From positions 13,486 to 45,485 of the forward strand of contig JAFGFH010000013.1 in NCBI GenBank assembly GCA_016931175.1: DNA of 32,000 nucleotides, read 5' to 3'. The translations under genes and the position numbers were made by a program. This stretch comes from Nanobdellota archaeon. Its GTDB lineage: Archaea > Nanobdellota > Nanobdellia > Tiddalikarchaeales > Tiddalikarchaeaceae. The notes below the pieces were generated by a model. That model ran no database searches. It was not told where the DNA came from and saw nothing but the letters and a program-made list of their open reading frames with translations. Position 1 is the first letter of the stretch. Every line of letters begins with the position of its first letter. This document shows, one piece after another, positions 2-22,658 of this stretch.

Positions 2-712
2 TTCTTCCCGGAATCAACGAATCTTGACAGCGTGAACGTTTTAAACAAGGAAGGGAAAATACTTCCTTTGGAATTAATCAATAATTATTACAAGATTACA
101 GCAACGGTTCAAGTAAGTAAAGAACTAGTTAATGAGACAATAACCTTAGACAATGTTAACTTAAGAACCGCGAATAATGAAGCGATTAATACAACTAGTT
201 TAGCCGCATTTGTTGAAGAATCCAGAGCTGAATTAAATCTTGACTCAATAGTTTACAACAATAATTATTACGACGCGAACGCGTCAATAACAATACTCGT
301 TCCTTACGCTGAGCAGAACTCAGTGATTAATATTGCACTCTTCTATGCTAGTGACGAGTCTGGTGAAATAATAAATTACCCAACTCTTGAGCAGGGAATA
401 GTCCTGCCTTACACTACTAGTTTCCCAATTAAAAGCAAAGCATCAGAGGTTAGATTCACTGCAGAACTTGAAGCTAACGAGGAGCAGACTATGAGCTTAT
501 ATTACGAATTAAACACTGAACCATTAACCAGGAGTTTTAACAGTTTAACAACTGACCAGGACAAGGTTGAAGTGCAAACAAGGAAGTCTTATTACGCTTC
601 AACTACTCCGTTAACAAGCTACCAGTCAACTAATACTTACAACGTCAGAAAGACAGTAGTAACAAGCGGTTTGAACTGCTTGATTAATTTCAAGGTGTGG
701 AACTATGAGTAG
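2..712 (+). CDS. C-terminal part of an Asn/Thr/Tyr-rich secreted or surface protein (5' end outside window)
   Basis: The frame of ORF 32..712 stays open back to base 2 with no stop, so the GTG at 32 is probably internal. Composition resembles the downstream 946-aa protein. Its stop overlaps the next start by 8 nt (705-712). Confidence 0.55.
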   Translation, partial: FFPESTNLDSVNVLNKEGKILPLELINNYYKITATVQVSKELVNETITLDNVNLRTANNEAINTTSLAAFVEESRAELNLDSIVYNNNYYDANASITILVPYAEQNSVINIALFYASDESGEIINYPTLEQGIVLPYTTSFPIKSKASEVRFTAELEANEEQTMSLYYELNTEPLTRSFNSLTTDQDKVEVQTRKSYYASTTPLTSYQSTNTYNVRKTVVTSGLNCLINFKVWNYE

Positions 713-10089: not shown

Positions 10090-11316
10090 ATGGAAGAGAG
10101 TAGCCAATATTTAGTAACTATTGAACAAATCAATGCTTACAGGAGCTTGGTTAGTGAAGCTGTTAAGATAGCTAGGAAGAGAGAATTAGAAGATTTAAGT
10201 GACGAGTTAGATTTTAATAATTCAATAGGTGATTATTCTCTAACTGAAATTAATAACACGAGCAAAAGATTAATATACTTAACTAAGGTTGCAGAGCTGG
10301 CTAAGGACTACTTGAACCTTGAAGAAAAGAAGATACTCTTAGGAGGTAATGTCTTCAGCAATTATGTTCCAACACCTGAAGATTTGAATAATCCTATAAA
10401 CTTCTTGTTTAAAATAACAGAGGTTTTCTTTTCAAAAGAAGATGACCAGTACAAATTCTTCTCATTACTAATTGGGGATAAAATTAATGACTATCATTCT
10501 TTAAGAAGAGAATATAAAGATATTAAACATAACGAATTCATTGACAGATTAGACTATTTTATATCAAATATTAACATTGCACTTGCGAAAAAAGAAGTAT
10601 TTGACAACAATAGTATTGAAAATGTGTTATTAAAAGAAGAAGATATAGAAGAGATAATTAAAACCATTAAAGAGTATCAAAACACTCACTCTAATCTTCT
10701 TGATGAGAATAAAATAGATATGGAATCATTCAATCAGTCACTGTTTGACGCAAGCTTTGAAGAAAAGTATGGAAGATTAATCAATGGTTCATTCATTGAA
10801 GAATATAGAAGCAAACTAGTTGAATTTAAACAGAGGTTCAGCGAGATTAAAGACTTATTTGAAAAGAAAGAGGCAGCTAGTGAAGAGCTTCTGAAAGAGT
10901 TCTGCACCTCTTTATTAAAGGCGTACAAACCCTTGCACAAGATTGCGAAATCAGCAGTTAAGGAATTTGAAAAGATGGAGAAAACAGATAGAGAACTTAT
11001 TGCTCTATTCTCAAACATAAGCCAGGAGATATCAGACCACTTAAAGAATAGTTTTGAGAGCAGCTGGGTTCCTTTAAAGAATGAGTTATTTCTAAGAGTT
11101 ATTGATAACTACGAGTCTTTAAAGAAGGAGAAGGCGTCAGGCAATATTCTGAAAAGCTCTTTCATACCGAACTTGAAAGATTATGATAAGGGTTACACTT
11201 TCTTAGCAGAAGAGGGCATGAAGCAAATATTGTCCAGCTGGAATCTAGTAAAAGATAATAAGAGTAGTTTAAAGAAGCGCTTAAAAGGTTTGAAGAAGGT
11301 GCTTAGTAAAGCCTGA
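10090..11316 (+). CDS. Hypothetical alpha-helical, E/K-rich protein (408 aa), no family recognised
   Basis: Long ORF with its own TATA at -28. Coding-like composition. No TM segment, no catalytic or nucleotide-binding motif seen. Confidence 0.6.
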   Translation: MEESSQYLVTIEQINAYRSLVSEAVKIARKRELEDLSDELDFNNSIGDYSLTEINNTSKRLIYLTKVAELAKDYLNLEEKKILLGGNVFSNYVPTPEDLNNPINFLFKITEVFFSKEDDQYKFFSLLIGDKINDYHSLRREYKDIKHNEFIDRLDYFISNINIALAKKEVFDNNSIENVLLKEEDIEEIIKTIKEYQNTHSNLLDENKIDMESFNQSLFDASFEEKYGRLINGSFIEEYRSKLVEFKQRFSEIKDLFEKKEAASEELLKEFCTSLLKAYKPLHKIAKSAVKEFEKMEKTDRELIALFSNISQEISDHLKNSFESSWVPLKNELFLRVIDNYESLKKEKASGNILKSSFIPNLKDYDKGYTFLAEEGMKQILSSWNLVKDNKSSLKKRLKGLKKVLSKA

Positions 11317-11476: not shown

Positions 11477-11914
11477 CTATAAATCTTTCGATTTAATAAA
11501 TTCGTCAACTATTCTCGCCTTATCTAATCTGCTGCATTCAGCGTAAGCGTCTGATTGCGCGCCTAGTTTAAGGCAGGGGAAGCCATTAATCACTGCAACC
11601 TCTCCGCCTCTTTTAAGATAACAGCCGTGCGGGAACTCTGCACAGAACTCAACCTTTACCCCGTTGATACTAACATGCAATGATTCACGGTCTTTATCCT
11701 TCGCAAGCCCATTGTTTACTATCCCGTAATCCTTAAACAATTCCATAACCTTATTCTTATCATTGTAACTAATTATAACATCAATATCATTTGGTTCAAC
11801 GTTCATGCCTTGAAGCAGTAATGAAACGCTTCCGCCAATAAACCATTTAATACTTATACTGTTTAATCTGTCTTTAACCAGATTCAATACCTTAATAAAA
11901 CCTTCACTTACCAT
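11477..11914 (-). CDS. Small nucleotidyltransferase-fold protein (minimal Pol-beta superfamily, Lnu(A)/ANT(2'')-like size and layout)
   Basis: WFIGGSVSLLLQGMNVEPNDIDVII matches the G[GS]-x(9-13)-D-x-D NTase signature. 145 aa. Its start overlaps the carS stop by 7 nt. Confidence 0.5.
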   Translation of the reverse strand: MVSEGFIKVLNLVKDRLNSISIKWFIGGSVSLLLQGMNVEPNDIDVIISYNDKNKVMELFKDYGIVNNGLAKDKDRESLHVSINGVKVEFCAEFPHGCYLKRGGEVAVINGFPCLKLGAQSDAYAECSRLDKARIVDEFIKSKDL

Positions 11915-12429
11915 GGTTCTTTCTTAAAACCTAATTTGTACCCGATTATGCTCGCACTGCGGTGCACTAAGGGTGTTATTAAAAGCGCTAATACGAAGCT
12001 CCAAATATTATACGGCACGAAGAACCAAGCGATTAAGAAGGCACCGGTTATGAAATCAAGCATGTCCAGTAATCCCGCGTTCTGCCCTCTTTTCATCTTC
12101 AAACGCCTCTTTATGAAACTTCCCACCGAGTCTCCAATCATGGCGCCGACTCCAATAAAGAAGAAAGCGATTGGAGGAATATTAAGGAACCCGTCGTAAT
12201 TAATGCTGGAAATGATTTGAAGCTCTAATAAACCCGTAAAGTAAGCTATTATTGAAGCAAAGACGAAGCCTTCAATAGTCTTGCCGTCGCCAAGAATCCT
12301 CTCTCCTTTAATCTTTAGATTAAAATCAATAGGGTGCTTTTTTAATTTTATAAGAAAAGGAGGCGAACCGTTAGCAACATAAGCAGGAACAGCTATTTGA
12401 AGCATTTGAACTATTATTTCAATCAGCAT
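11908..12429 (-). CDS. carS: CDP-archaeol synthase
   Basis: VPAYVANGSPP...HPIDFNLKIKGERILGDGKTIEGF plus about 5 TM helices. This is the CarS (former DUF46) pattern. Confidence 0.85.
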   Translation of the reverse strand: MLIEIIVQMLQIAVPAYVANGSPPFLIKLKKHPIDFNLKIKGERILGDGKTIEGFVFASIIAYFTGLLELQIISSINYDGFLNIPPIAFFFIGVGAMIGDSVGSFIKRRLKMKRGQNAGLLDMLDFITGAFLIAWFFVPYNIWSFVLALLITPLVHRSASIIGYKLGFKKEPW

Positions 12430-12451: not shown

Positions 12452-12461
12452 TTTTTAAAAA
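12452..12461. promoter_or_regulatory. Perfectly palindromic TATA element TTTTTAAAAA shared by divergent carS and CDP-alcohol phosphatidyltransferase genes
   Basis: It is the only TATA-like element in the 53-nt spacer. Its centre is 27.5 nt from complement ATG 12429 and 26.5 nt from ATG 12483. Confidence 0.45.
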
Positions 12462-12482: not shown

Positions 12483-13061
12483 ATGAATTTGCTTAAAAGG
12501 GTTAAAAAACTTTTTCATAAAGCAGTTGAGCCGTTAATTAAGGTGCTTGTTAGATTAAAAATTACTCCAAACATGGTTTCAACATCTTCACTATTCTTTC
12601 TCGCAGTAACGGTTTACTTCATAATTAACAAGAACACTATTGCTGCAGGTTTAATGCTTGCAATTACTTCAATCGTTGACGCTTTAGACGGTGCTGTAGC
12701 TAAAAAAGTGGGAAGCACCCGGTTCGGAGACTTCTACGACGCCTTCCTTGACAGAATCGTTGAGGGAATAGTTTACGTAGTAATCGCTTACACTTACCCA
12801 AGCATTTACTTAATCTGTTTCATAGCGTTCGGCCTGTCTTACATGACTAGTTACGTAGCAGCAAGGGCTGAGGTTTGGACTATAGGTGTTAAGATTAAAT
12901 ACTTAGGCATAGGAGGCAGGCCGGGCAGATTATTAGTGTTAATACTGTCATTCATGCTGGACAAGATAGAATTAGGACTCTACATAATAAGCTTTTTTGC
13001 ACTCATAACAGTTATTGGAAGAAGCATAGTAACACTTAGAATATTATCAAAGAAGAATTAA
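12483..13061 (+). CDS. CDP-alcohol phosphatidyltransferase (archaetidylserine / archaetidylinositol-phosphate synthase-type)
   Basis: DALDGAVAKKVGSTRFGDFYDAFLDR matches D-x2-D-G-x2-A-[RK]-x8-G-x3-D-x3-D. Multi-TM protein. Confidence 0.85.
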   Translation: MNLLKRVKKLFHKAVEPLIKVLVRLKITPNMVSTSSLFFLAVTVYFIINKNTIAAGLMLAITSIVDALDGAVAKKVGSTRFGDFYDAFLDRIVEGIVYVVIAYTYPSIYLICFIAFGLSYMTSYVAARAEVWTIGVKIKYLGIGGRPGRLLVLILSFMLDKIELGLYIISFFALITVIGRSIVTLRILSKKN

Positions 13062-13991: not shown

Positions 13992-14933
13992 ATGAAATTC
14001 AGCACTTTAATACTTATTATAATACTAATTTTCGCGCTTTATCTAATAATGCCTTTTATGCAGATAATTATTGGAAGCTTACTAATCGCGTTCTTGATAG
14101 AACCTTTAAGCCACAGAATAACCAAGATAATAAAGAATGAAAAGATTTCTTATTTTATACTAACAATATTGTCCGTTTTATTATTTTCATTCCTATTCTA
14201 TTTAATAACCCGCATGACTATAATAAGCTTGATTGAACTGCAGTCAATACTTGACTCTAACTTAATCTTCTTGAACAATTTCATATCAAACTATGGTGAT
14301 GATTTAATCTTCCAATCCACTCCCACGAATTTTATAAACTTCATAGAAGCACTATTCTTTAACACTCCTAAAACACTCCTCGACCTGCTGCTTTTAACAT
14401 TCCTAGTTTTTTACATGCTTAACGATTCGCACAGGTTAAAAAACTGGTTAGGCAGGAAAGTCTTAAGCAGGAAAGAGTTTGAACTGCTTGAAAAATTCAT
14501 TAAGAGAGCGAATTATATACTTAACAATTTCATATGGAGTTACTTATTCGTAGCTTTAATTATGGGGGTTATAATCTTCGTTTGCATAAGTTTTTTACAA
14601 ATAGGTTACGCGGTAGAAGTAGCAACCATTGCAATGATTATAACTTTCCTTCCTGTAATAAGCGGTTGGTTAGTGCCGTTCTTATTAAGCATTTATTACT
14701 ATTTCAAAGACGATTTTTTTAAATCAACTATTATCTTCATAGTTTCAGTAATACTATTATTCATTGACCACTATTTTGACAAGATTTTCAGGGATGAGAA
14801 AGGAATCCACCCAATTGTCTTAATATTCGGATTAGTATCAGGCTTTTTGTCGCTTGGAATATTCGGGTTCATAGCAGGCCCAGTACTTGCAGGATTAGTT
14901 CAAGCAGGTTACGAGGTCACATTCGAGAGATAG
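13992..14933 (+). CDS. AI-2E family (PerM/UPF0118) transporter
   Basis: About 8 TM helices. FLVFYMLNDSHRLKNWL, ITFLPVISGWLVP, GIHPIVLIFGLVSGFLSLGIFGFIAGPVLAGL match conserved AI-2E blocks. Confidence 0.7.
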   Translation: MKFSTLILIIILIFALYLIMPFMQIIIGSLLIAFLIEPLSHRITKIIKNEKISYFILTILSVLLFSFLFYLITRMTIISLIELQSILDSNLIFLNNFISNYGDDLIFQSTPTNFINFIEALFFNTPKTLLDLLLLTFLVFYMLNDSHRLKNWLGRKVLSRKEFELLEKFIKRANYILNNFIWSYLFVALIMGVIIFVCISFLQIGYAVEVATIAMIITFLPVISGWLVPFLLSIYYYFKDDFFKSTIIFIVSVILLFIDHYFDKIFRDEKGIHPIVLIFGLVSGFLSLGIFGFIAGPVLAGLVQAGYEVTFER

Positions 14934-15119: not shown

Positions 15120-16055
15120 TTATTCCTTACCGAGAATTACTAAGTTATAAGTCTTTTTAATCAAAGGAGTGTTAAGCTTGTACTTGTTAATAATAGGCAT
15201 TACTACATTTAAAGCAGTTAATCCTTCAACAACCTGCCCTACCTTCTTAACAGCTTCTTCCTTGCTAACTTTTTTCCCTATTAATTCACCAAATCTCCTG
15301 TTCCTGCTGTGAACACTCGTGCAAGTAACAACCAAGTCGCCCAGCCCTGCTAACCCGTAAACGGTTTCAGCTTCTCCGCCAAATTTTGTAATAATTAATC
15401 TTAACTCGTCCAATCCTTTTGATACCAAACCTGCTTTACTATTACTGCTCTTGCCTAAACCGTCGCTGATTCCTGCGAGTATTGCAATAATATTCTTAAG
15501 AGCGCCGCATAATTCCACTCCTGCAACATCGTTTGATGAACTAATATTATAATAACTGGTTTCAAACGCTTCCTTAACCCTGATAAGACTCTTATTGTTT
15601 TTGGAAGCAAAGACTACGAAGGTGTCCTGCTTCTTTCCTAATTCATTGGCAATACTCGGGCCGCCAATAACAACAAAGGGGTTGTTAAAATACTCATTCA
15701 ATACTTCACTCACTCTCTTATTAGAGCCCTGCTCTAAGCCCTTGGCAGCGCTCACAACTATTGCTTTATTAGGCATTAATTCACTGCACTGCTTGGCAAC
15801 CTTCCTAATAACTTGTGAAGGCAATGCGAACACTATAATATCTGCTCTTTCAAGAGCCGTCTTCAAGTCAAGAGTTGCACTAACATCCCCCTTTAATACG
15901 ACTCCTTTCAAGTATTTCGAATTCAACTTTTTTTCATTAATCTCTTCAACAACGCTTGACTCAATACTCCAAAATATTACACTACTCTTATTCTCTAATG
16001 CTGGTACTGCGAGTGCAGTGCCCATGTTGCCAGCGCCGAGTATAGCAATCCTCAC
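15120..16055 (-). CDS. gpsA: NAD(P)H-dependent sn-glycerol-3-phosphate dehydrogenase (bacterial GpsA type)
   Basis: RIAILGAGNMGTALA, AAKGLE, GGPSIANE, GVELCGALKNIIAILAGISDGLG, GLGDLVVTCTSVHSRNRRFG. GTG start in a GTGA overlap with the pyk stop. Confidence 0.9.
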   Translation of the reverse strand: MRIAILGAGNMGTALAVPALENKSSVIFWSIESSVVEEINEKKLNSKYLKGVVLKGDVSATLDLKTALERADIIVFALPSQVIRKVAKQCSELMPNKAIVVSAAKGLEQGSNKRVSEVLNEYFNNPFVVIGGPSIANELGKKQDTFVVFASKNNKSLIRVKEAFETSYYNISSSNDVAGVELCGALKNIIAILAGISDGLGKSSNSKAGLVSKGLDELRLIITKFGGEAETVYGLAGLGDLVVTCTSVHSRNRRFGELIGKKVSKEEAVKKVGQVVEGLTALNVVMPIINKYKLNTPLIKKTYNLVILGKE

Positions 16056-17377
16056 TTTATCAGCTCCTTAACATTATATATTGTAATCGTGTTCGTAGTA
16101 TTTTTAATGAACAGTCCTGCAACGAATACTACAAAATCGTTTATCTTAACAAGTTTCTTCTTTAAGCAGAGCTTAGTAGCTTCTTTTATGTCATACTTGT
16201 CAAGCTTCTTATAATATAAGGGTTTTATGCCATAACTTATCATTAACTGCCTAGCAATTAATTCATTATTAGTGAAAGCTATTAAAACCCGTTCTGGTTT
16301 AAACCTGCTAAGCATCCTGGCCGTGTAACCGCTCCTAGTTAAGCATATTATCCTCGCGTTCATCTCTTCTGAGAGTTTGAAAGCGTTGCTCGTTACGGCA
16401 TCAACTATGTTGTAACCGCTGGACTCGAACAACTTCTTATACTCGCTTTTTTCCGTGTTAATGCATATGCTGTTCATTTTCTGAACAACGAGTGAGGGAT
16501 AACTGCCTATGCTTGTCTCTCCTGAAAGCATTACAGCATCAGCACCGTCAAGGATAGCATTAGCAACGTCGCTGGTTTCAGCCCTTGTAGGAGTAGTATT
16601 GCTTATCATTGACTCCATCATTTGAGTCGCGACTATAACAGGCACTCCAATCGTGTTGCAGTCATTTATTATCTGCTTCTGAAGCAAGGGTATCTTCTCG
16701 CTTGGAAGCTCCACGCCTAAGTCTCCTCTTGCTATCATTACAGCATCAGCGCTTCGCATTATCTCCTTATACTTTTTGCTGCCTTCCTTGTTCTCAATCT
16801 TTGCAATTATCTTAATTCCAGACTTGCCTAATTTTTTCCTAACTAGTTCAACATCTTCTTTGCTGCGAGTATAAGACAATGATATGAAGTCTGCTTTCTT
16901 CTTAACAGCGTATTTTAAGACTTCTTCATCTTTCCGCGTTAGTATTGGCAGATGAATATTAGTTTTCTTAAAAACAATGCTCTTATTCTTCACCAGCTGC
17001 CCGCTGCCGTAAAGTCTAACAATTAAGCTCTTACTTTTGACTTTCACAACCTTGCCAGTTGTTAAACCATCGTTCAAAACAATCTTAAGCCCAGGCTTTA
17101 ATTGCTTGTAAATATTAACAGATAAGAATATTTCAACATCTTCATTACTGAACTTGAAGTCATCATTAACTACTCTAATTTCAGGCCCTTCCGTATCCAG
17201 CATTATAGGCAGGTTGCAGGAACTCCTGATATTCTTAATAATCTCATCATATTGTTTGAAATCACCGTATGAAGTGTTTATCCTGCAAGCATTCATCCCA
17301 TTATTACACATTCTTTTAATAGTATTAGAATTTAAACTAGCAGGGCCGATAGTGCATATTATCTTAGTCTTCTTCAC
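16052..17377 (-). CDS. pyk: Pyruvate kinase
   Basis: KTKIICTIGPAS, GMNACRINTS, LDTEGPEIR, IARGDLGVELP, ATQMMESM...PTRAETSDVANAILDGADAVMLSGETSIGSYP. GTG start in a GTGA overlap with the upstream stop. Confidence 0.95.
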   Translation of the reverse strand: MKKTKIICTIGPASLNSNTIKRMCNNGMNACRINTSYGDFKQYDEIIKNIRSSCNLPIMLDTEGPEIRVVNDDFKFSNEDVEIFLSVNIYKQLKPGLKIVLNDGLTTGKVVKVKSKSLIVRLYGSGQLVKNKSIVFKKTNIHLPILTRKDEEVLKYAVKKKADFISLSYTRSKEDVELVRKKLGKSGIKIIAKIENKEGSKKYKEIMRSADAVMIARGDLGVELPSEKIPLLQKQIINDCNTIGVPVIVATQMMESMISNTTPTRAETSDVANAILDGADAVMLSGETSIGSYPSLVVQKMNSICINTEKSEYKKLFESSGYNIVDAVTSNAFKLSEEMNARIICLTRSGYTARMLSRFKPERVLIAFTNNELIARQLMISYGIKPLYYKKLDKYDIKEATKLCLKKKLVKINDFVVFVAGLFIKNTTNTITIYNVKELIK

Positions 17378-18219
17378 TTTCTTCCCTCCTTGATTATACT
17401 CGCAGCAGCAACTACTCCTTTGCTTACAGCAGTGCTTACCTGACCTAAACCTTTAGTGCAGTCCCCTGCAGCCCAGACGAAAGGAACATTAGTTTTCATA
17501 TCCTCATCAGCCTTAACTTTGTCTGCCTCAATTATTACACCAAGCATCTTGGCCAAATCATTAGCTGAAGCGTTCCCTGCAGCAATGAATAAACCGTCAA
17601 CCTTAACTGTTCCTTTGCTTGTCTTAACAGAGTCAACGAGTTTCTCACCCATTATCTTCTCAATCTTATACTCTTCAATTTTGAATTTTTTTGTTTTGAA
17701 CTCCGGCTTCTTCCCGTTAGTGACAATAGTAACATCTTTTGTATAATCCAGCAAATCCTCTGCCTCGGCTAGTGCGAAACTAGTATTTCCTACAACGAAT
17801 ACTTTCTTGTTCTTGAAAAAGAAACCGTCGCACGAGACGCAGTAACTCACTCCTTTGCCGACGTAGTTTTTCTCGTTGCTAATCTCTGACATCTTCTTAG
17901 CACTCCCGGTTGCTATTATTAAATTCTTACAATCGTAATTCTTTTCAGAAAAGACTTTGAAGCTTTCATCTTCTGCTTCCACCTTCGTAACTAATCCGTT
18001 AATCACCTTAGCACCGAAGCCTTCAGCCTGCTTCTGCCCTTTTTCCATAAGTTTCCTGCCAGTAATCTCACCCGCAGCGAAGAAGTTGTTAATCTTAACA
18101 CTATCCTTCCAAATCTGATTCTCTTCACCAATAACCAATACTTTTCTGCCCGCCCTGCACAAGTAAATCGCAGCACTTAAACCAGCAGGACCCCTGCCAA
18201 TAATAATCACATCATACAT
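17374..18219 (-). CDS. trxB: Thioredoxin-reductase-like flavoprotein with degenerate NADPH-binding motifs
   Basis: FAD motif YDVIIIGRGPAGLSAA, redox CVSC in GVSYCVSCDG, C-terminal VWAAGDCT. The expected GGGNSA and HRRxxxR positions read VVGNTSFALAEA and VTIVTNGKKPEF. Confidence 0.8.
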   Translation of the reverse strand: MYDVIIIGRGPAGLSAAIYLCRAGRKVLVIGEENQIWKDSVKINNFFAAGEITGRKLMEKGQKQAEGFGAKVINGLVTKVEAEDESFKVFSEKNYDCKNLIIATGSAKKMSEISNEKNYVGKGVSYCVSCDGFFFKNKKVFVVGNTSFALAEAEDLLDYTKDVTIVTNGKKPEFKTKKFKIEEYKIEKIMGEKLVDSVKTSKGTVKVDGLFIAAGNASANDLAKMLGVIIEADKVKADEDMKTNVPFVWAAGDCTKGLGQVSTAVSKGVVAAASIIKEGRK

Positions 18220-18241
18220 GACTTATTAGAAGGTGCTAAGC

Positions 18242-18250
18242 TTTTTTTAA
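18242..18250 (-). promoter_or_regulatory. TATA-like box (TTAAAAAAA on minus strand) for the trxB-pyk-gpsA-fdx operon
   Basis: Its centre at 18246 is 27 nt upstream of complement ATG 18219. It overlaps the stop codon of the 505-aa gene. Confidence 0.35.
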
Positions 18251-19764
18251 GATTTCTCTAACTTAACTTTACTCCTCAAAAAAGCAGCCGTACTAGGGTC
18301 AAAAACGTAAACGCCTTTATCTGTTAAAGCGTTCCAGTCAGGACTTATTCCCTGCTTTTTTTGTTTAAGATAGAAATGAGAACTTCTCGGATCAAACGCG
18401 ATATCATCTTCTTCTTTTTTATAAAACTTTATCGTATACTTCTGCCTTGAAGGTGAAATTGATAATTTTGAAACCTCTTCTTTAAATACTCCTCCATCAA
18501 AGTCAATAGTTTTAATATCTGAAGAGAATAAAGGAGCCTTTACATTTTTAGTTAAAATCTTTGGACTTACATAATACTTCGCGTCTCTTCCAAGTCTCTT
18601 GCTGCCTTCTTGTAAAAGAACTGCGCTTATGTTGTCAACATTACCTGTGAGTATTGCAGTATCTTCAAAAATACTCTTTCTAATACCTATAATTCCGTTG
18701 GCTTGCAGGAAAGGGCTCATCATGTATTCAAAACCTATATTATTAAAGAGTTCAAACTCTGCGTCGTACATGGGCTTTTTCTCAGCATAGATTCTCCAAG
18801 CTAATAAAGAGTTTATTCCTTTAGCAATCCTGTTCTCTTTGCCGTCAGGTCTTTTAAAACTCTCCATTAAGTCAAGGCCTGTGCATAAATTCTCAAGAGT
18901 TGCAAGAACTCCTTTTGGTTTTTCAATCCTAATCTTCTCAGGAAAGTATTTCGCGTATATCATAAGTGCGAGCAAGTGCTTGCCAGGAAGATCGTGTTCA
19001 GTATGTTCGTCCTTAGTGTCAGAGCCTTTAATCTTGTCTCCGCAGCCGCAGCTCATACTAAGATTGTCTTTGAATACTAATCCTTTAATAGTTTCAAAAG
19101 CGCAGTTCTGATAGGTTACGCCGTACTCATTTGTTACATTATTAGAAGCGCTTTCAACGTCAGCTGTTAGTGTTTCTCCTGTAAATTCTGCGTTCTTAAA
19201 CCTGAAACTAAAGTGGTCGCTGTACCTGTCAGATTTCTTGTTCATACCTTTATATAATTGCTGAAGCTTTCCTGTATTAAAACTAAAGCATAACCTGTCA
19301 GATAACATGTCATCATAATTCAATAGCAAAGCCTTCATTGTCCTAACTGGGTCAAATCTTATATAATGCCCGTTGCTGTGTTCAATCTTTATATCCCAGC
19401 TTCTTATCATCCAAGGCTTGTTAAACATGTTCTTCTCCCAAATGAAAGGGCCTTTTAGCTGAAATCCGTAATCAAAATGTATGTATCCTAAGTATTTGCT
19501 GTCAACACCTGCAGCGTCTACTAATCTATTGGTGCTGTTTGGTCTTTTAGGGAACTCGTTCTCATCAAACCTTCCAGTGTAATACCCTATTAATTCTCCT
19601 ATATTGAACAACGCCTTGCTGAAAGCGAAATCCCCGTTGTTCTCTTTTATAATTTTTGCAGTCTCAGGCTCGTATTTTAAAAAATAGTGCTCTAAGAAGA
19701 CTTCTCTATCTTCATTGAATTCCAATGGATTAATCCATTCCTTAATCTCTGAAAAAGCACTCAT
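18247..19764 (-). CDS. Orphan 505-aa soluble protein with degenerate SWIM-like element; function unknown
   Basis: Uninterrupted ORF with ATG start and an A/T box about 29 nt upstream (19786-19801). Internal SCGCGDK-x(17)-PGKHLLALMIYAKYF resembles SWIM CxC...CxH with the third Cys replaced by Gly. No other motif recognised. Confidence 0.7.
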   Translation of the reverse strand: MSAFSEIKEWINPLEFNEDREVFLEHYFLKYEPETAKIIKENNGDFAFSKALFNIGELIGYYTGRFDENEFPKRPNSTNRLVDAAGVDSKYLGYIHFDYGFQLKGPFIWEKNMFNKPWMIRSWDIKIEHSNGHYIRFDPVRTMKALLLNYDDMLSDRLCFSFNTGKLQQLYKGMNKKSDRYSDHFSFRFKNAEFTGETLTADVESASNNVTNEYGVTYQNCAFETIKGLVFKDNLSMSCGCGDKIKGSDTKDEHTEHDLPGKHLLALMIYAKYFPEKIRIEKPKGVLATLENLCTGLDLMESFKRPDGKENRIAKGINSLLAWRIYAEKKPMYDAEFELFNNIGFEYMMSPFLQANGIIGIRKSIFEDTAILTGNVDNISAVLLQEGSKRLGRDAKYYVSPKILTKNVKAPLFSSDIKTIDFDGGVFKEEVSKLSISPSRQKYTIKFYKKEEDDIAFDPRSSHFYLKQKKQGISPDWNALTDKGVYVFDPSTAAFLRSKVKLEKS

Positions 19765-19813
19765 TAATATATTATCTTAAGAAATCCTATTTATTAATTT
19801 ATCCCTACCACTC

Positions 19814-20410
19814 TTAGTTGTTGCTTTTTGCAGGTTTGAAAAACTGCTTCTCTGTCGCGTATTTAATTATTGAGGTTAACTGGAATAGTAAAGCGTGAAG
19901 GGCATAATCTGGTTTGAAAAAATAGACGAAAACAATAACCATGACTATTCTTACCAGCATCTCAACGAACTCGTTCCTAGTATACTTCAAATACTTATTG
20001 CTTAAGAACACGAACCCAATAGATAATGCGAAAAAAATTGCAATGACAGGATTTATTAAGAGAAATGTTCCAATATTAGTGCTCGCACCCTTGCCTCCCT
20101 TGAATCTTAAGAAGAGGCTGTAATTGTGGCCGAGTGTTGAGAAGACTCCGGAGACTAGTGTTGCCAGCCACAAATCATTCAACAAGTAATAAGACAATAA
20201 TCCTGCTGCCACGGCTTTGCCTAAATCAAAAACTATTACAAGCAAGTAAGTTTTAAGTGATTTAGTTATGTAAAAAGAGTTGGTTCCTCCAACGTTCCCG
20301 TCACCCTCCAAGAGTATGTTTTTTTTATGAAAGAATTTTAAGAATAAGTAAGAGCTGGGATAACTGCCCAGCACGTAACTAATTAAACAGCTTATTATTA
20401 CTCTTAACAA
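19814..20410 (-). CDS. plsY: Glycerol-3-phosphate acyltransferase PlsY family, paralogue 2
   Basis: LGSYPSSY, GDGNVGGTN, DLGKAV, GHNYSLFLRFKGGKGAST, about 5-6 TM helices. TTG start; overlaps paralogue 1 by 32 nt. Confidence 0.8.
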   Translation of the reverse strand: MLRVIISCLISYVLGSYPSSYLFLKFFHKKNILLEGDGNVGGTNSFYITKSLKTYLLVIVFDLGKAVAAGLLSYYLLNDLWLATLVSGVFSTLGHNYSLFLRFKGGKGASTNIGTFLLINPVIAIFFALSIGFVFLSNKYLKYTRNEFVEMLVRIVMVIVFVYFFKPDYALHALLFQLTSIIKYATEKQFFKPAKSNN

Positions 20411-20936
20411 TTCGAATCACGTCCTTGTGAGCTATTAAAACAGCTCCAATAATTCCTAAATAAATCACGTATTCAGGCAGATTAAAAAGGAATAAGAAGA
20501 TGAGAAGAATAGGAATGCTAAGCAGACCTGCCTTCACGTAATCCTTTAATAAAACCAGTAAAATGATTAAGATTACAACCATTAATGCCAAAAATAATGG
20601 TTTTATTAATAGCATAACTCCTATTGCGATAGCTAAACCCTTGCCTCCCTTGAAATTCAAGAATATGCTGTAATCATGGCCTAAGATGCCTGCTGTGACA
20701 GCAATGATTAAACCAGCAGGGCCTGGACTTAACGATTGGGAGATTATGACTATTAAAACCCCTTTTAAAACGTCCACTAGTAATACTATTCCTGACATGA
20801 TAATTGAATGGCTCGTGATTAAAACATTATACGCTCCCATGTTCTTATCCCCTTTGTAAAATATTTTATTATCCATTAAGTAAGCAGTTGGGAAACTGCC
20901 AATAATGTACGAGATTAAAGCAAGTAATAGGTTCAT
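20379..20936 (-). CDS. plsY: Glycerol-3-phosphate acyltransferase PlsY family, paralogue 1
   Basis: IGSFPTAY, GDKNMGAYN, DVLKGV, GHDYSIFLNFKGGKGLA. ATGA overlap with the degV stop. Confidence 0.8.
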   Translation of the reverse strand: MNLLLALISYIIGSFPTAYLMDNKIFYKGDKNMGAYNVLITSHSIIMSGIVLLVDVLKGVLIVIISQSLSPGPAGLIIAVTAGILGHDYSIFLNFKGGKGLAIAIGVMLLIKPLFLALMVVILIILLVLLKDYVKAGLLSIPILLIFLFLFNLPEYVIYLGIIGAVLIAHKDVIRIVKSNNKLFN

Positions 20937-21751
20937 TCCTCAACCCAACCGATTGCTACGCACTCAGGTCCGACGTGAACACCTAAGACTGGAGTTAAAT
21001 AATCCATAACAATAACCTCGTATTTTTTCTTGAAAAAATCAATTAATTCCTTAGTCTCCTTGTCAAGATTGTTATGTATTAAGTAAATCTTTTCTGCACT
21101 GTTTATCTTTGATGATACGAAGCTTTGAAAACCGTTAACAAAATCATTAAGAACAAGCATCTTCCCAGCACTCTTCAAAGCGCCTTCTGCTATTTCAAGA
21201 ACAGGTTTTAAGTTTATAAGCCTTCCAAAAGCTCCTAAGACCTTATTAACCCTGCCTCCTCTTACTAAATAGTTAAGATTTTTTACAACAAAGAATATTT
21301 TAACCTTTGGAACCATTTCCTTGACTTGTTTTATAATCTCTTCATAATTTTCTCCCTTCTTTAACAAATCAACTGCTTTATCCACGAGCAAACCCATTGC
21401 AGCACTCGTTGTTTTGGAATCAATAATAGTTATCGGGTTTTTGAATAATTTAGCAGCAGTTAACCCGCTATTATACGTGCCGCTGAGTATAGAACTAACT
21501 GTTAATACGATTAATTTGTCATTTTTGAACTTGTTAAAGACCTTAATAAAATCTTCAGGATTGGCTTGGCTGGTCTTAAACACGTTGTCCCAATTAGTTA
21601 TCTTGTCATAAAAATCTTTCTTGCCTATTCGTACCTCTTTATCATTGAGAAAGGTGTGAACACTGACTTCGTGAACTAATCTCTTGTCTGTTGCTGGCAG
21701 GTAATCAATTGTGCCGTCAACGAGTATTCTAATCCTTCCTGATGCTTTCAT
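20933..21751 (-). CDS. degV: DegV family fatty-acid-binding protein (FakB-like)
   Basis: ILVDGTIDYL, KTSQANPEDF, LTVSSILSGTYNS, IIDSKTTSAAMGLLV, NYLVRGGRV, LKPVLEI. These are the canonical DegV blocks. Confidence 0.85.
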   Translation of the reverse strand: MKASGRIRILVDGTIDYLPATDKRLVHEVSVHTFLNDKEVRIGKKDFYDKITNWDNVFKTSQANPEDFIKVFNKFKNDKLIVLTVSSILSGTYNSGLTAAKLFKNPITIIDSKTTSAAMGLLVDKAVDLLKKGENYEEIIKQVKEMVPKVKIFFVVKNLNYLVRGGRVNKVLGAFGRLINLKPVLEIAEGALKSAGKMLVLNDFVNGFQSFVSSKINSAEKIYLIHNNLDKETKELIDFFKKKYEVIVMDYLTPVLGVHVGPECVAIGWVEE

Positions 21752-22628
21752 TCTGCTCCCTCATATTATCAACCTCGAATTTTACAATTTCCCCAAAGGA
21801 TGAGCATAAAATTTTAACATTATCAAAGTCATTAGTGTGCATGTGAATTCTTAAGAGATTATTATCCTCTCCAAGCTCTATAGAATCACCTATTGAACCA
21901 AGAACCTCTTTTAATCCCTTCACGTGCTCGCATTTTTTTAATAATACGTTAACGCAGTATTCCATTTTAATATTATTCACTGGCTCCTTAACTATCATGT
22001 GGTCAAAAGATGAATCATATTTTGGAACCACACCTATGGCTCTAAGCCAGGCAGCCATCATGTAAATAACACCTAATCCTCCCGCGTCAACAACCCCGCA
22101 GTCTTTGAGCACTGGCAAACGGTTCATAGTTTTCTTCAAATACTTCTGCGCTGTTTCAAAACTGCTTAATAATACATCTATCACGTTTTCGCACTTCTTA
22201 ACCATTTTAATGGCGCCGATGCTTGCTCCTTTAAACACTGTCAGCATGGTTCCTTCAACAGGGTTGTTAACTGCTTTGTAAGCGTAATTGCAGCCGATTT
22301 TTATTGCTTTAGCGAACTCTTCAGGCCCGACTTTCTTGTATTTTATCAAACAATCACAGAAGCCTTTGTAAAACTGTGACATTATCACTCCACTATTGCC
22401 TCTCGCATCGGATAATAAGTAAGTCTTCAAATCTATCAGGAAATCTTTCAAGGAGTCATGATTCTTTAAATTCTTAGCATTGTTAAAAGTGTAGCAGAGA
22501 TTATTCCCAGTGTCACCATCTCTTACTGGGAAAACGTTTATGTAATTCAAGTAATCCTTCTTAGATTCTATAACACTGGCAGTTTCGAATATCATGTTCT
22601 TAAAATCATTGACTTCAAGCCTTTCCAT
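21729..22628 (-). CDS. Dak2-domain protein equivalent to the N-terminal and middle domains of fatty acid kinase FakA (C-terminal domain absent)
   Basis: VFPVRDGDTGNN, DARGNSGVIMSQFYKGF, NPVEGTMLTV, CGVVDAGGLGV, YCVNVLL, IGDSIELGEDNNLLRIHMHT, VKFEVDNMREQN. These are collinear with my recollection of S. aureus FakA up to its inter-domain linker. 299 aa. Confidence 0.8.
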   Translation of the reverse strand: MERLEVNDFKNMIFETASVIESKKDYLNYINVFPVRDGDTGNNLCYTFNNAKNLKNHDSLKDFLIDLKTYLLSDARGNSGVIMSQFYKGFCDCLIKYKKVGPEEFAKAIKIGCNYAYKAVNNPVEGTMLTVFKGASIGAIKMVKKCENVIDVLLSSFETAQKYLKKTMNRLPVLKDCGVVDAGGLGVIYMMAAWLRAIGVVPKYDSSFDHMIVKEPVNNIKMEYCVNVLLKKCEHVKGLKEVLGSIGDSIELGEDNNLLRIHMHTNDFDNVKILCSSFGEIVKFEVDNMREQNESIRKD

Positions 22629-22650: not shown

Positions 22651-22658
22651 TTTTAAAA
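22651..22658 (-). promoter_or_regulatory. TATA box TTTTAAAA for the fakA-like/degV/plsY/plsY operon
   Basis: Its centre is 26.5 nt upstream of complement ATG 22628, implying a leaderless transcript. Confidence 0.4.

Follow-up and report, generated by a model that had tools for sequence, protein, structure and literature searches.

The window, by which we mean the whole stretch of 32,000 nucleotides analysed here, belongs to a tiny archaeon of symbiotic type (DPANN), placed in the Nanoarchaeia/CG07-land group (Tiddalikarchaeales). The chromosome is genuinely archaeal, as the initial annotation had held: the window encodes both RFC subunits, TBP, MCM, aIF2-beta, aIF5B, L7Ae, and S8e. The features that matter here are the following.

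22651..22658, minus strand: A/T box TTTTAAAA, at -30 to -23 from the FakA ATG, a putative archaeal TATA/BRE element of the four-gene unit
21729..22628, minus strand: FakA_NL, truncated fatty acid kinase catalytic subunit, 299 aa, with the Dak2 ATP domain and the Cys/His middle domain and no FakA_C
20933..21751, minus strand: FakB/DegV fatty-acid-binding subunit, 272 aa (DegV Pfam 194.6 bits; TIGR00762 207.6, cut-off 99.7)
20379..20936, minus strand: PlsY-like acyltransferase type A (PlsY-1), 185 aa (PF02660 91 bits; TIGR00023 86 bits, below 137.2)
19814..20410, minus strand: PlsY-like acyltransferase type B (PlsY-2), 198 aa (PF02660 95 bits; TIGR00023 94.6 bits, below 137.2)
17374..18219, minus strand: thioredoxin-reductase-like flavoprotein (TrxR; profile match), first gene of a conserved TrxR-PK-GpsA unit
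16052..17377, minus strand: pyruvate kinase (PK; TIGR01064 415 bits, cut-off 306), with 4-nt overlaps with TrxR and GpsA
15120..16055, minus strand: GpsA, NAD(P)H-dependent sn-glycerol-3-phosphate dehydrogenase, 311 aa (NF000942 315 bits, cut-off 257)
13992..14933, plus strand: AI-2E family transporter, a conserved neighbour (PF01594 88 bits)
12483..13061, plus strand: CDP-alcohol phosphatidyltransferase, nearest to archaetidylinositol-phosphate synthase (PF01066 49.5 bits; NF040950 113.7, below 180)
11908..12429, minus strand: CarS, CDP-archaeol synthase (NF003114 161 bits, cut-off 148), divergent from the CDP-alcohol transferase

The five reading frames at the centre of the initial annotation (FakA-like, DegV, PlsY-1, PlsY-2, and GpsA) lie on the minus strand where it had placed them, with all its quoted motifs in the translations, and profile HMM searches (Pfam, NCBIfam/TIGR) agree with the family that it gave to each, as they do for CarS and the CDP-alcohol transferase. 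Its spacing was also right: PlsY-2 and GpsA are 3.8 kb apart, and the CDP-alcohol transferase lies 2.1 kb from GpsA.

The segment from 22628 to 19814 probably constitutes a single transcription unit of tightly overlapping genes, fakA(NL)-fakB-plsY(A)-plsY(B), native to the DPANN archaeon. The reading frames overlap by 23 nt between fakA and fakB, by 4 nt between fakB (degV) and PlsY type A, and by 32 nt between the two PlsY types if type B starts at TTG. The TTTTAAAA box ahead of FakA, which had been likened to that of archaeal housekeeping genes, does recur with similar spacing upstream of aIF5B, S8e, tRNA-Lys, and, as one shared palindromic copy (12453-12460), between the divergent CarS and CDP-alcohol transferase genes; it occurs 9 times in total where 5.6 copies are expected, which by itself is not a significant excess. 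GpsA is part of the separate TrxR-PK-GpsA unit, whose first gene has an A/T box at about -32 to -23 from the ATG and is collinear in three relatives (L012, L014, and L009). The enzyme itself matches both Pfam domains (NAD_Gly3P_dh_N 153.6 bits; NAD_Gly3P_dh_C 152.2 bits) and aligns at 209 bits with GpsA of Coxiella (3K96), sharing its motifs LKNI, GLGDL, and SRNRRFG.

Seven or more independent archaeal assemblies carry the fakA-fakB-plsY module, with differing flanks: Ca. Tiddalikarchaeum (L001), L002, L004/L005, a 'Woesearchaeota' MAG (L009), L011, L014, and Heimdallarchaeota (L006/L007). Among the relatives it lies repeatedly near GpsA, CarS, and the CDP-alcohol transferase. The order aIF5B-fakA-fakB-plsYA-plsYB of the window recurs in L011 and L014, and in the latter all eight genes fall inside 11 kb. 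PK-GpsA adjoins module genes in L012 and L014, while the position is without GpsA in L009, where the module abuts CarS and the CDP-alcohol transferase, the latter directly beside the Fak genes. In Tiddalikarchaeum, PlsY type A stands between CarS/CDP-alcohol transferase and AI-2E/GpsA, with the AI-2E orthologue directly after it (L012); further AI-2E orthologues occur in L014 and L001.

Could the block have arisen through faulty assembly or binning, or be a bacterial insertion so recent that it may not even function? Every archaeal sequence that we compared derives from metagenome assemblies, and the nearest non-archaeal relatives of FakA are of Clostridia type, at 35-41% identity. Yet 35-41% is the most that any bacterial sequence reaches, the DPANN FakA clade has a bootstrap of 100%, and its catalytic residues are invariant. 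Moreover, the gene order is identical in independent samples (L011, Logan SRR28370467; L014, JGI Ga0210051), and the module sits on NCBI, JGI, and ENA contigs of up to 235 kb together with archaeal ribosomal, TFIIB, MCM, and aIF genes. Synteny across independent assemblies, which we used in place of read mapping, thus bears out the earlier view that the block contains no chimeric join. The GC content and codon usage of the block are native, and an archaeal-type promoter box precedes it. We regard the reading as an artefact or very recent insertion as effectively refuted and scarcely credible. Nor is the block a recent bacterial import: its composition is native, a DPANN lineage of order rank has conserved it, and Heimdallarchaeota possess a related module.

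The kinase belongs to the family that had been proposed for it, with 96 bits for Dak2 and 58 bits for FakA-like_M, and is no full-length FakA: the C-terminal FakB-docking domain, FakA_C, is absent from the 299-aa protein, the alignment with S. suis FakA 7W7H (165 bits) is confined to residues 3-322, and the scores fall far short of the equivalog cut-offs of NCBIfam (185, cut-off 975; TIGR03599 245, cut-off 396). All catalytic residues are nonetheless retained. N31, D37, D39, T40, N78, D181, C225, H262, and H264, which are invariant in nine DPANN orthologues, correspond to N32, D38, D40, T41, N82, D185, C240, H282, and H284 of SaFakA. A truncated kinase is plausible because S. aureus FakA_NL, with the same N+L architecture, is active, its Km for FakB being 11-fold higher (PMC9136124), and we infer that the archaeal enzyme functions without FakA_C. 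The partner subunit fits this picture. FakB keeps the ligand site (T60, S90, and R167 invariant, and H259 in six of eight sequences, equivalent to T61, S93, R170, and H264 of the FakB reference), while the arginine that docks onto FakA_C (R202) is a leucine in the window. This arginine is lost in the archaeal module FakBs and retained by the Firmicute control, a pattern that is consistent with co-evolution towards a complex devoid of the C domain. From these sequences, the activation of fatty acids to acyl-phosphate is a well-supported prediction.

The two acyltransferases call for more caution. Their membership of the G3P_acyltransf family, as originally proposed, stands: both exceed the PF02660 gathering score of 24 and align with canonical PlsY at an hhalign probability of 99.9. 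They are not the products of a simple duplication. They share 31% identity, occur together in at least four genomes (the window, L011, L014, and Tiddalikarchaeum), and represent two old, rare types; at E<=1e-30, the type-B profile recovers just 3 of 1.84 billion cluster representatives. The acyl-phosphate half-site (N37, H92, and GGKG) is intact in both and conserved in every archaeal PlsY compared. In the Aquifex enzyme (aaPlsY), S35, R45, K104, and N180 clamp the phosphate of the acceptor, and S142 and H177 hold its 2-OH. Type A keeps N37, N42, H92, G102-G105, K104, and H177, and carries the changes S35D, T41Y, R45I, S142K, and N180V (among archaeal type A sequences, position 35 is D/T/S, 41 is Y/F, 45 is I/K/A/L, and 180 is V/F). 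Type B keeps N37, T41, N42, H92, and K104, and carries S35D, R45Y, H177Y, and N180E (across archaeal type B, these four positions are D, Y/I/V/F, Y, and E, respectively). The canonical G3P pocket is therefore mostly lost in both, at Arg45, Asn180, and either Thr41 (type A) or His177 (type B). Matching mutants of aaPlsY are nearly dead, with R45A at 1.1%, R45K at 6%, H177Y at 0.03%, N180D at 3.3%, and T41A at 4.8% of wild-type activity (PMC5700162). Since the scores fall short of the PlsY equivalog cut-off (TIGR00023, 137.2) and most Aquifex G3P-binding residues are missing, acyl transfer to sn-G3P specifically, as claimed at the outset, is not well supported by these sequences.

On balance, we lean towards an explanation in which the Fak operon activates scavenged fatty acids and the PlsY-like pair acylates a hydroxyl acceptor, most likely a glycerol phosphate. 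FakB would extract free fatty acids originating from the environment or the host, and the truncated FakA would use ATP to convert them to acyl-phosphate. This would be the sole activated acyl donor provided by the window, which encodes no PlsX and, as already noted in the initial annotation, no PlsC or CdsA. The two membrane enzymes would then pass the acyl group to their acceptor, for which sn-G3P from the co-located GpsA, yielding lysophosphatidate, is the obvious candidate, and the product could then serve the CarS and CDP-alcohol transferase encoded nearby. We infer the identity of the acceptor, the division of labour between types A and B, and all downstream steps. The broader proposal of the initial annotation, that exogenous fatty acids are scavenged by way of acyl-phosphate, is supported, and the lipid pathways of cluster-2 DPANN are commonly incomplete (PMC7414124). 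Several observations weigh against this explanation: the G3P pockets are not conserved and the corresponding aaPlsY mutants are almost inactive, both PlsYs and FakA score below equivalog level, GpsA is encoded 3.8 kb off in a unit of its own and is not always present, and characterised CarS strongly favours DGGGP over diacyl phosphatidate and cannot substitute for E. coli CdsA (PMC9385802).

The altered pockets suggest another possibility, which we hold tentatively and consider rather unlikely: FakA and FakB make acyl-phosphate, but both PlsY-like enzymes acylate acceptors other than sn-G3P. These could be G1P, a lysolipid acylated at sn-2, an archaeal lipid obtained by scavenging (or its head group), or an alcohol or amine that bears no phosphate. 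On this view, the module would serve to finish or remodel scavenged lipids instead of starting a bacterial-type pathway. The G3P half-site was rebuilt differently in types A and B, and the co-occurrence of such divergent types argues for non-redundant roles. In core type B, the acidic D35 and E180 replace phosphate-clamp residues, and N180D in aaPlsY raises the Km for G3P 22-fold (PMC5700162). Because the PlsY of the Heimdallarchaeota module is canonical throughout, the changes seen in DPANN are specific to that lineage, and life in an archaeal host does not dictate them. Canonical bacterial PlsY, finally, accepts G1P besides G3P (PMC13400652). However, the surroundings of the pocket retain positive charges (K104 throughout; Lys45 in about half of type A, and a conserved Lys at the S142 position of this type; an invariant Lys three residues past position 45 in type B), and a phosphorylated acceptor is therefore still plausible. 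GpsA is also repeatedly co-located, and sequence alone names no alternative acceptor.

The Fak pair might instead serve fatty-acid detoxification, turnover, or signalling, with the PlsY-like genes linked incidentally. FakA/VfrB of S. aureus, with its regulatory role, is a precedent, and a FakA devoid of its C domain and far under the equivalog cut-off, together with the lack of PlsC and CdsA in the window and in the neighbourhoods of its relatives, could be read this way. We find it improbable: fakA, fakB, and both plsY genes are tied together by overlapping reading frames, all archaeal contigs with context show fakA-fakB-plsY linked, in DPANN and Heimdallarchaeota alike, and PlsY has kept the residues that bind acyl-phosphate. 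With about 1 Mb, the genome would also be unlikely to retain four genes merely for detoxification.

One of the nearest known parallels to the module is the FakA/FakB-PlsY pathway by which Firmicutes (S. aureus and Streptococcus) incorporate exogenous fatty acids. Both have a Dak2-type kinase with its Mg/ATP and Cys-His-x-His middle-domain residues, a DegV-fold FakB with a Thr/Ser/Arg/His carboxylate site, and a PF02660 membrane acyltransferase with the acyl-phosphate 'phosphate hole'. They differ in that 1) archaeal FakA lacks the FakB-docking domain and archaeal FakB the docking arginine; 2) the archaeal genes form one overlapping operon with the acyltransferases, whereas Firmicute fakA lies beside recG (L010 and L008) and plsY elsewhere; 3) the window has two divergent PlsY-like enzymes with G3P pockets that are not conserved; and 4) the window is without PlsX, PlsC, and CdsA, and the archaeal host carries CarS. 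Lipid genes of bacterial type (GpsA, PlsY, and PlsC) have been described in uncultured Archaea (Villanueva 2017; Coleman 2019, PMC6431249), with the PlsY and GpsA homologues of DPANN and Asgard MAGs read as bacterial transfers; the presence of PlsY and GpsA in DPANN was therefore known before. These surveys covered gene presence only. They mention no Fak genes, from which the acyl-phosphate needed by PlsY would come, and no operon, pair of PlsY types, modified acceptor pocket, or CarS linkage, and the literature that we searched contains no report of an archaeal Fak module or of the two-PlsY arrangement. The Dak2-FakA_M-DegV fusions of Chloroflexi and Firmicutes (Erni 2006; bioRxiv 10.1101/2021.02.16.431466) likewise pair FakA N+L with a true DegV/FakB (Pfam DegV 182-255 bits in their C-terminal half) and have no FakA_C, but they are single bacterial polypeptides of about 600 aa encoded next to DUF1295 rather than PlsY, and at 25-35% identity they are more distant from the window FakA than Clostridia-type full-length FakA. 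The module of Heimdallarchaeota shares the fakA(NL)-fakB-plsY order and a short FakA (314 aa) without the C domain, and this FakA is sister to that of DPANN in the NJ tree with a bootstrap of only 34%; its genes do not overlap, and its single PlsY has S35, S41, R45, H92, K104, H177, and N180.

The lipid genes named in the initial annotation belong to the families to which they had been assigned. The open reading frames lie on the minus strand at the coordinates listed here, all motifs quoted for them occur in the translations, and profile HMM searches return the same families (Dak2/FakA, DegV, PlsY and GpsA). Together with the two further lipid genes, they are:

22628..21729, minus strand: FakA-like protein, 299 aa (Dak2, 96 bits; FakA-like_M, 58.5 bits)
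21751..20933, minus strand: DegV, the FakB of the module, 272 aa (PF02645, 194.6 bits against 27; TIGR00762, 207.6 bits against a cut-off of 99.7)
20936..20379, minus strand: PlsY-1, 185 aa (PF02660, 91 bits against a gathering score of 24.1)
20410..19814, minus strand: PlsY-2, 198 aa (PF02660, 95 bits against a gathering score of 24.1)
16055..15120, minus strand: GpsA, 311 aa (NF000942, 315 bits against a cut-off of 257)
12429..11908: CarS, 173 aa (NF003114, 161.4 bits against a cut-off of 148; PF01864, 125.6 bits)
12483-13061: CDP-alcohol phosphatidyltransferase, 192 aa (PF01066, 49.5 bits)

The first four genes overlap by 23 nt (fakA/degV), 4 nt (degV/plsY-1) and 32 nt (plsY-1/plsY-2), a layout indicating that fakA-degV-plsY-1-plsY-2 is a single translationally coupled unit with one promoter box upstream. 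This box, TTTTAAAA, lies at -30 to -23 relative to the fakA ATG. The claim that fakA sits behind a box used by archaeal housekeeping genes was borne out: the same palindrome is similarly placed before aIF5B, S8e, tRNA-Lys and, in one common copy, CarS and the CDP-alcohol transferase; in a window-wide count, enrichment of the octamer TTTTAAAA was not significant. The common copy (12453-12460) occupies the middle of the gap that separates the divergent starts of CarS (12429) and the CDP-alcohol transferase (12483). At some 24-30 nt from either one, it may be a common bidirectional promoter element. PlsY-2 and GpsA are separated by a 505-aa ORF without annotation, a thioredoxin-reductase-like flavoprotein (TrxR) and pyruvate kinase (PK). 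Since 4-nt overlaps join TrxR to PK and PK to GpsA, and a separate A/T box stands upstream, TrxR-PK-GpsA makes a second unit, which is conserved (window 15120-18219, minus strand; 9692-12882 in L012, a Ca. Tiddalikarchaeum contig; 13621-16750 in L014, a JGI metagenome contig) and ties the synthesis of glycerol-3-phosphate (G3P) to a redox enzyme and the lower part of glycolysis.

For the 505-aa ORF (18247-19764, minus strand, between PlsY-2 and TrxR), Pfam, NCBIfam and PHROG gave no match. It is ruled out as a part of the module, because no related locus has a homologue, and looks like an insertion specific to this lineage that interrupts a region otherwise collinear; one stretch of it, CGCG...H..H, resembles a zinc-binding motif. 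Three plus-strand ORFs are also without a Pfam match: 705-3545 (946 aa), 10090-11316 (408 aa) and 32-712 (226 aa). The first two have no PHROG match either, and the related loci contain no homologue of the 408-aa ORF. A 145-aa nucleotidyltransferase-like ORF with a weak Aminoglyc_resit match (11477-11914, minus strand) overlaps the CarS stop by 7 nt and, among the compared loci, occurs in this genome only.

The block is archaeal. The window FakA is 100% identical to an NCBI protein from a 'Nanoarchaeota archaeon' MAG, and its nearest relatives (52-68% identity) come from Ca. Tiddalikarchaeum anstoanum, placed by GTDB in the Nanoarchaeia, order CG07-land (PMC8561730), from the Crystal Geyser 'archaeon CG06_land/CG07_land' MAGs and from a 'Woesearchaeota archaeon' MAG. 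This taxonomic spread is read from protein matches and cluster names; an exact-peptide-pattern scan of a genome collection with FakA returned one species representative only, identical to the 'Woesearchaeota' locus L009. The short fakA-degV-plsY core recurs on independent NCBI, JGI, ENA and Logan contigs (L001, L002, L004/L005, L009, L011 and L014), with flanks that vary but consist of archaeal genes throughout (those for ribosomal proteins, TFIIB, RNA polymerase N, MCM and aIF5B). The window order aIF5B-fakA-degV-plsY(A)-plsY(B), where A and B denote the PlsY types described below, is repeated in L011 (a Logan contig from SRR28370467) and L014. Both L014 and L012 (Tiddalikarchaeum contig 3) are collinear with the window over TrxR-PK-GpsA-AI-2E transporter-DUF7121-like-CDP-alcohol transferase-CarS. 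Elsewhere in the window are genes for the large and small RFC subunits, TBP, MCM, an RPA-like protein, aIF2-beta, aIF5B, L7Ae and S8e, and Rfam and tRNA scans have tRNA-Lys as their sole match. GC content is even across the block (0.34-0.40 in the module genes) and codon usage is unremarkable. The initial annotation had argued that the block is not an assembly chimera, and this stands: given synteny in independent assemblies, native GC content and codon usage, and the promoter box, a chimera or a recent import is excluded for practical purposes. Nor are the short FakA and DegV a frameshifted fusion, because the two ORFs are separate, with overlaps of differing length, in seven independent assemblies. 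Frameshift errors or pseudogenisation do appear in other genes of the related contigs: aIF5B in L014 (6328-8311) and the RuBisCO large subunit in the Tiddalikarchaeum contig L001 (798-2072) are each split into two adjoining ORFs.

The kinase pair retains its chemistry and has lost a domain. The window FakA aligns to residues 3-322 of the 554-aa Streptococcus suis FakA (7W7H) and then ends. Alignment to 7W7H and 7RM7 shows that the Mg/nucleotide residues N32, D38, D40, T41, N82 and D185 (S. aureus FakA numbering) are kept, as are Cys240 and His282-x-His284 of the middle domain (window C225, H262 and H264). All nine published catalytic residues (S. aureus FakA list, PMC9136124) are invariant in the 9 DPANN orthologues. 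The protein stops at residue 299 and has no match to the FakA_C domain (PF13684); TIGR03599 covers it over positions 1-301 of 530 only, and it scores 185.3 bits with the NCBIfam equivalog NF038248, below the cut-off of 975. This truncation is common to all 9 DPANN and 6 Heimdall-like homologues. The function of FakA_C is to dock FakB. S. aureus FakA without it (FakA_NL) still has kinase activity; its Km for FakB is 0.99 uM, against 0.09 uM for the full-length enzyme (PMC9136124). By analogy, the window protein, which has this same NL architecture, is likely able to phosphorylate FakB-bound fatty acid with ATP. On the FakB side, the carboxylate-site residues T60 and S90 and the essential R167 (= Thr61, Ser93 and Arg170) are invariant in the 8 module DegVs, and H259 (= His264) is His in six and Tyr in two. 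Two docking residues of S. suis FakB2, R173 and L181, are kept as K170 and L178 in the window, and the Arg that docks on FakA_C, R202, is lost (L199). All DPANN module DegVs have Leu or Ile here; the residue is Asn in Heimdallarchaeota and Arg in the Firmicute control L010. Judging from these substitutions, the FakA-FakB interface has evidently been rebuilt in the archaeal module.

The two acyltransferases diverge further from their bacterial counterparts. The annotation had read them as two PlsY paralogues that acylate sn-G3P. The first part needs qualification: both belong to PF02660 and are homologous to the family of the Aquifex enzyme of known structure, aaPlsY (hhalign probability 99.9 to a set of 100 canonical PlsYs), but they are only 31% identical and represent two distinct types. 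Type A comprises PlsY-1, its counterparts in L002, L009, L011 and L014, and a second Tiddalikarchaeum copy (P0126); type B comprises PlsY-2, the Tiddalikarchaeum module copy and those of L011, L014 and L004. The types co-occur in the window, L011, L014 and Tiddalikarchaeum. Type B is very rare, since its profile finds only 3 proteins at E<=1e-30 among 1.84 billion cluster representatives. Active-site residues were read from profile-profile alignments to full-length canonical PlsYs, against the Aquifex structure and mutagenesis (PMC5700162); the register of motif 3 was likewise taken from these, as it was inconsistent in MAFFT alignments. The acyl-phosphate half-site is kept in both paralogues (N37, H92 and the GGKG loop, Gly102-Gly105/Lys104), and T41 is kept in PlsY-2 and replaced by Tyr in PlsY-1. 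The acceptor side has changed. Of the G3P phosphate clamp (Ser35, Arg45, Lys104 and Asn180), K104 alone is retained in both window proteins; PlsY-1 has D35, I45 and V180, and PlsY-2 has D35, Y45 and E180. Among the ligands of the 2-OH, PlsY-1 has K142 and keeps H177, and PlsY-2 has a Leu-like position with a 6-aa insertion at 142, and Y177.

Residues of the PlsY active site (aaPlsY numbering) in the two archaeal types
Ser35, phosphate clamp: type A Asp/Thr/Ser; type B Asp (Ser in L004)
Thr41, acyl-phosphate carbonyl: type A Tyr/Phe; type B Thr (kept)
Arg45, phosphate clamp: type A Ile/Lys/Ala/Leu; type B Tyr/Ile/Val/Phe
Lys104, phosphate clamp: type A Lys/Arg (kept); type B Lys (kept)
Ser142, G3P 2-OH: type A Lys (conserved); type B Leu-like plus 6-aa insertion
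His177, G3P 2-OH: type A His (kept; Leu in P0126); type B Tyr (conserved KYATE motif)
Asn180, phosphate clamp: type A Val/Phe; type B Glu (Asn in L004)

In aaPlsY, matching mutants have 0.03-6% of activity left, and the positions concerned are 89-93% conserved over 7,288 homologues (89-95% for the four clamp residues in the family) (PMC5700162). Both window proteins also fall below the cut-off of the PlsY equivalog TIGR00023 (86.0 bits for PlsY-1 and 94.6 for PlsY-2, against 137.2). The second part of the claim is supported as to the acyl donor, whose half-site is intact, and is not supported as to sn-G3P, whose half-site is not conserved. Some positive charge persists at K104, at Lys45 in about half of type A and at Lys142 in type A, and type B has an invariant Lys three residues past position 45. 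From these residues a phosphorylated acceptor would be possible for both types, but the canonical binding mode could not apply. The nearest bacterial homologues of type A (P0127-P0148, 215 aa, from 'MAG: bacterium' entries) are themselves non-canonical, with Tyr35, Leu41, His45 and FRGGRG for FKGGKG, and appear to be another uncharacterised PlsY-like subfamily.

We propose that FakB would bind a scavenged fatty acid, that FakA(NL) would phosphorylate it on FakB to give acyl-phosphate, and that the two PlsY-like enzymes would use this product. The kinase step is likely. That at least one of the PlsY paralogues acylates a glycerol phosphate is a little better than an even bet, and sn-G3P as the specific acceptor is less probable than that. 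The chief evidence for one pathway is the recurrent re-association of the module, in varied arrangements, with GpsA, CarS and the CDP-alcohol transferase. GpsA is canonical (PF01210, 153.6 bits; PF07479, 152.2 bits; LKNI, GLGDL and SRNRRFG align with 3K96) and lies near module genes in three loci (the window, L012 and L014); the PK-TrxR block of L009 is without it. CarS and the CDP-alcohol transferase adjoin the Fak module in L009 and flank PlsY type A in Tiddalikarchaeum. The transferase scores below the cut-off for archaetidylinositol-phosphate synthase (NF040950, 113.7 bits against 180) and matches the general CDP-OH_P_transf family only, a level of match that does not fix the head group. 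Bacterial PlsY and PlsC take both G1P and G3P in vitro (PMC13400652), so the backbone here could have either chirality. An AI-2E family transporter also recurs beside the lipid genes (window 13992-14933, plus strand; L012 8570-9508; L014 17000-17938; L001 3693-4691). In Tiddalikarchaeum it is the gene immediately downstream of type A PlsY, and it could conceivably act in the transport of fatty acids or lipids.

The main rival takes its force from the altered pockets: the PlsYs might use a different acceptor, and one type might acylate lysophosphatidate at sn-2. The residual Lys residues keep a phosphorylated acceptor plausible, and the linkage to GpsA speaks for glycerol phosphate; the lost clamp speaks for the rival. 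A lysophosphatidate acyltransferase of this kind, if real, would replace PlsC where the cell is without acyl-ACP and acyl-CoA. It would even allow a route to a two-chain ester lipid from acyl-phosphate only, in which type A makes lysophosphatidate, type B is a new acyl-phosphate-dependent lysophosphatidate acyltransferase, and CarS and the CDP-alcohol transferase add the head group. On such a route the lysophosphatidate maker would probably be type A, which keeps His177 and has the new pocket Lys; type B has Asp/Glu/Tyr in place of the phosphate clamp. Purified Archaeoglobus fulgidus CarS favours DGGGP over diacyl phosphatidate and does not complement an Escherichia coli cdsA mutant, and work with crude membranes found little ester/ether or G3P/G1P selectivity with geranylgeranyl chains (PMC9385802). 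The DGGGP preference and the failed complementation count against an easy completion of the pathway, and we consider the full two-chain route improbable. Were it true, a DPANN archaeon would make complete ester phospholipids, possibly heterochiral, wholly from scavenged fatty acids. Our preferred reading remains that at least one paralogue would acylate a glycerol phosphate.

Neighbour-joining, used for all trees, recovers a DPANN FakA clade with 100% bootstrap. In the full tree, DPANN and Heimdall-like short FakAs form an exclusive clade with a bootstrap of only 34%, so a single archaeal origin of the short form, although possible, is not claimed. The nearest bacterial FakAs are of Clostridia type (35-41% identity). 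For PlsY types A and B, a sister relationship has a bootstrap of 49% and was not upheld. Heimdallarchaeota have the same module, with a short fakA (314 aa, without the C domain), degV and plsY (L006 5265-7955; L007 357-3047). Their PlsY is fully canonical, so the pocket changes are specific to this DPANN lineage. Short forms are not restricted to Archaea, since the Clostridia contig L008 (2507-3406) has a 299-aa FakA without the C domain beside recG, with no adjacent DegV.

Whether archaea with bacterial-type lipid genes make ester lipids is an open question of the 'lipid divide'. One persistent objection is that no source of acyl-phosphate is known for archaeal PlsY, the archaea concerned not being known to use PlsX or acyl-ACP. 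A fatty acid kinase and PlsY-like enzymes in a conserved operon would answer this objection, and they narrow the question to four small genes open to expression and assay. To ultra-small DPANN cells that lack complete lipid pathways, the module might offer a concrete way of gaining membranes. In Heimdallarchaeota it would provide the acyl-phosphate donor for the Asgard PlsY, which published surveys leave unexplained; a module of this kind that includes a canonical PlsY is relevant to how the ester lipids of eukaryotes arose. The remodelled PlsY types may show new acceptor specificities in a family thought invariant, and in the truncated FakA/FakB pair nature provides a test of the role proposed for FakA_C.

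A comparison with known systems shows what this locus adds. About 65 metagenomic loci (L015-L083) encode Dak2-FakA_M-DegV fusions of about 600 aa, confirmed by Pfam (e.g., L017 9920-11725 and L030 9947-11734), usually followed by a DUF1295 membrane protein. These natural fusions show that FakA N+L and a FakB-type partner can cooperate directly. They come from bacteria and had been reported previously, in heliorhodopsin neighbourhoods; they were rejected as ancestors of the split archaeal genes, to which they are 25-35% identical, against 35-41% for the Clostridia-type FakA. We found no description of Fak genes in archaea in the full text of open-access papers and bioRxiv, and mention elsewhere is possible; the Tiddalikarchaeum paper (PMC8561730) does not mention lipids, and its supplements are without lipid annotation. 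PlsY, PlsC and GpsA have already been published from DPANN, Asgard and MGII MAGs (PMC6431249; PMC13400652). What appears to be new is the operon itself, the pairing of a truncated FakA with a FakB co-adapted to it, the two rare types of PlsY and their rebuilt acceptor pockets, and the conserved linkage to GpsA, CarS and the CDP-alcohol transferase.
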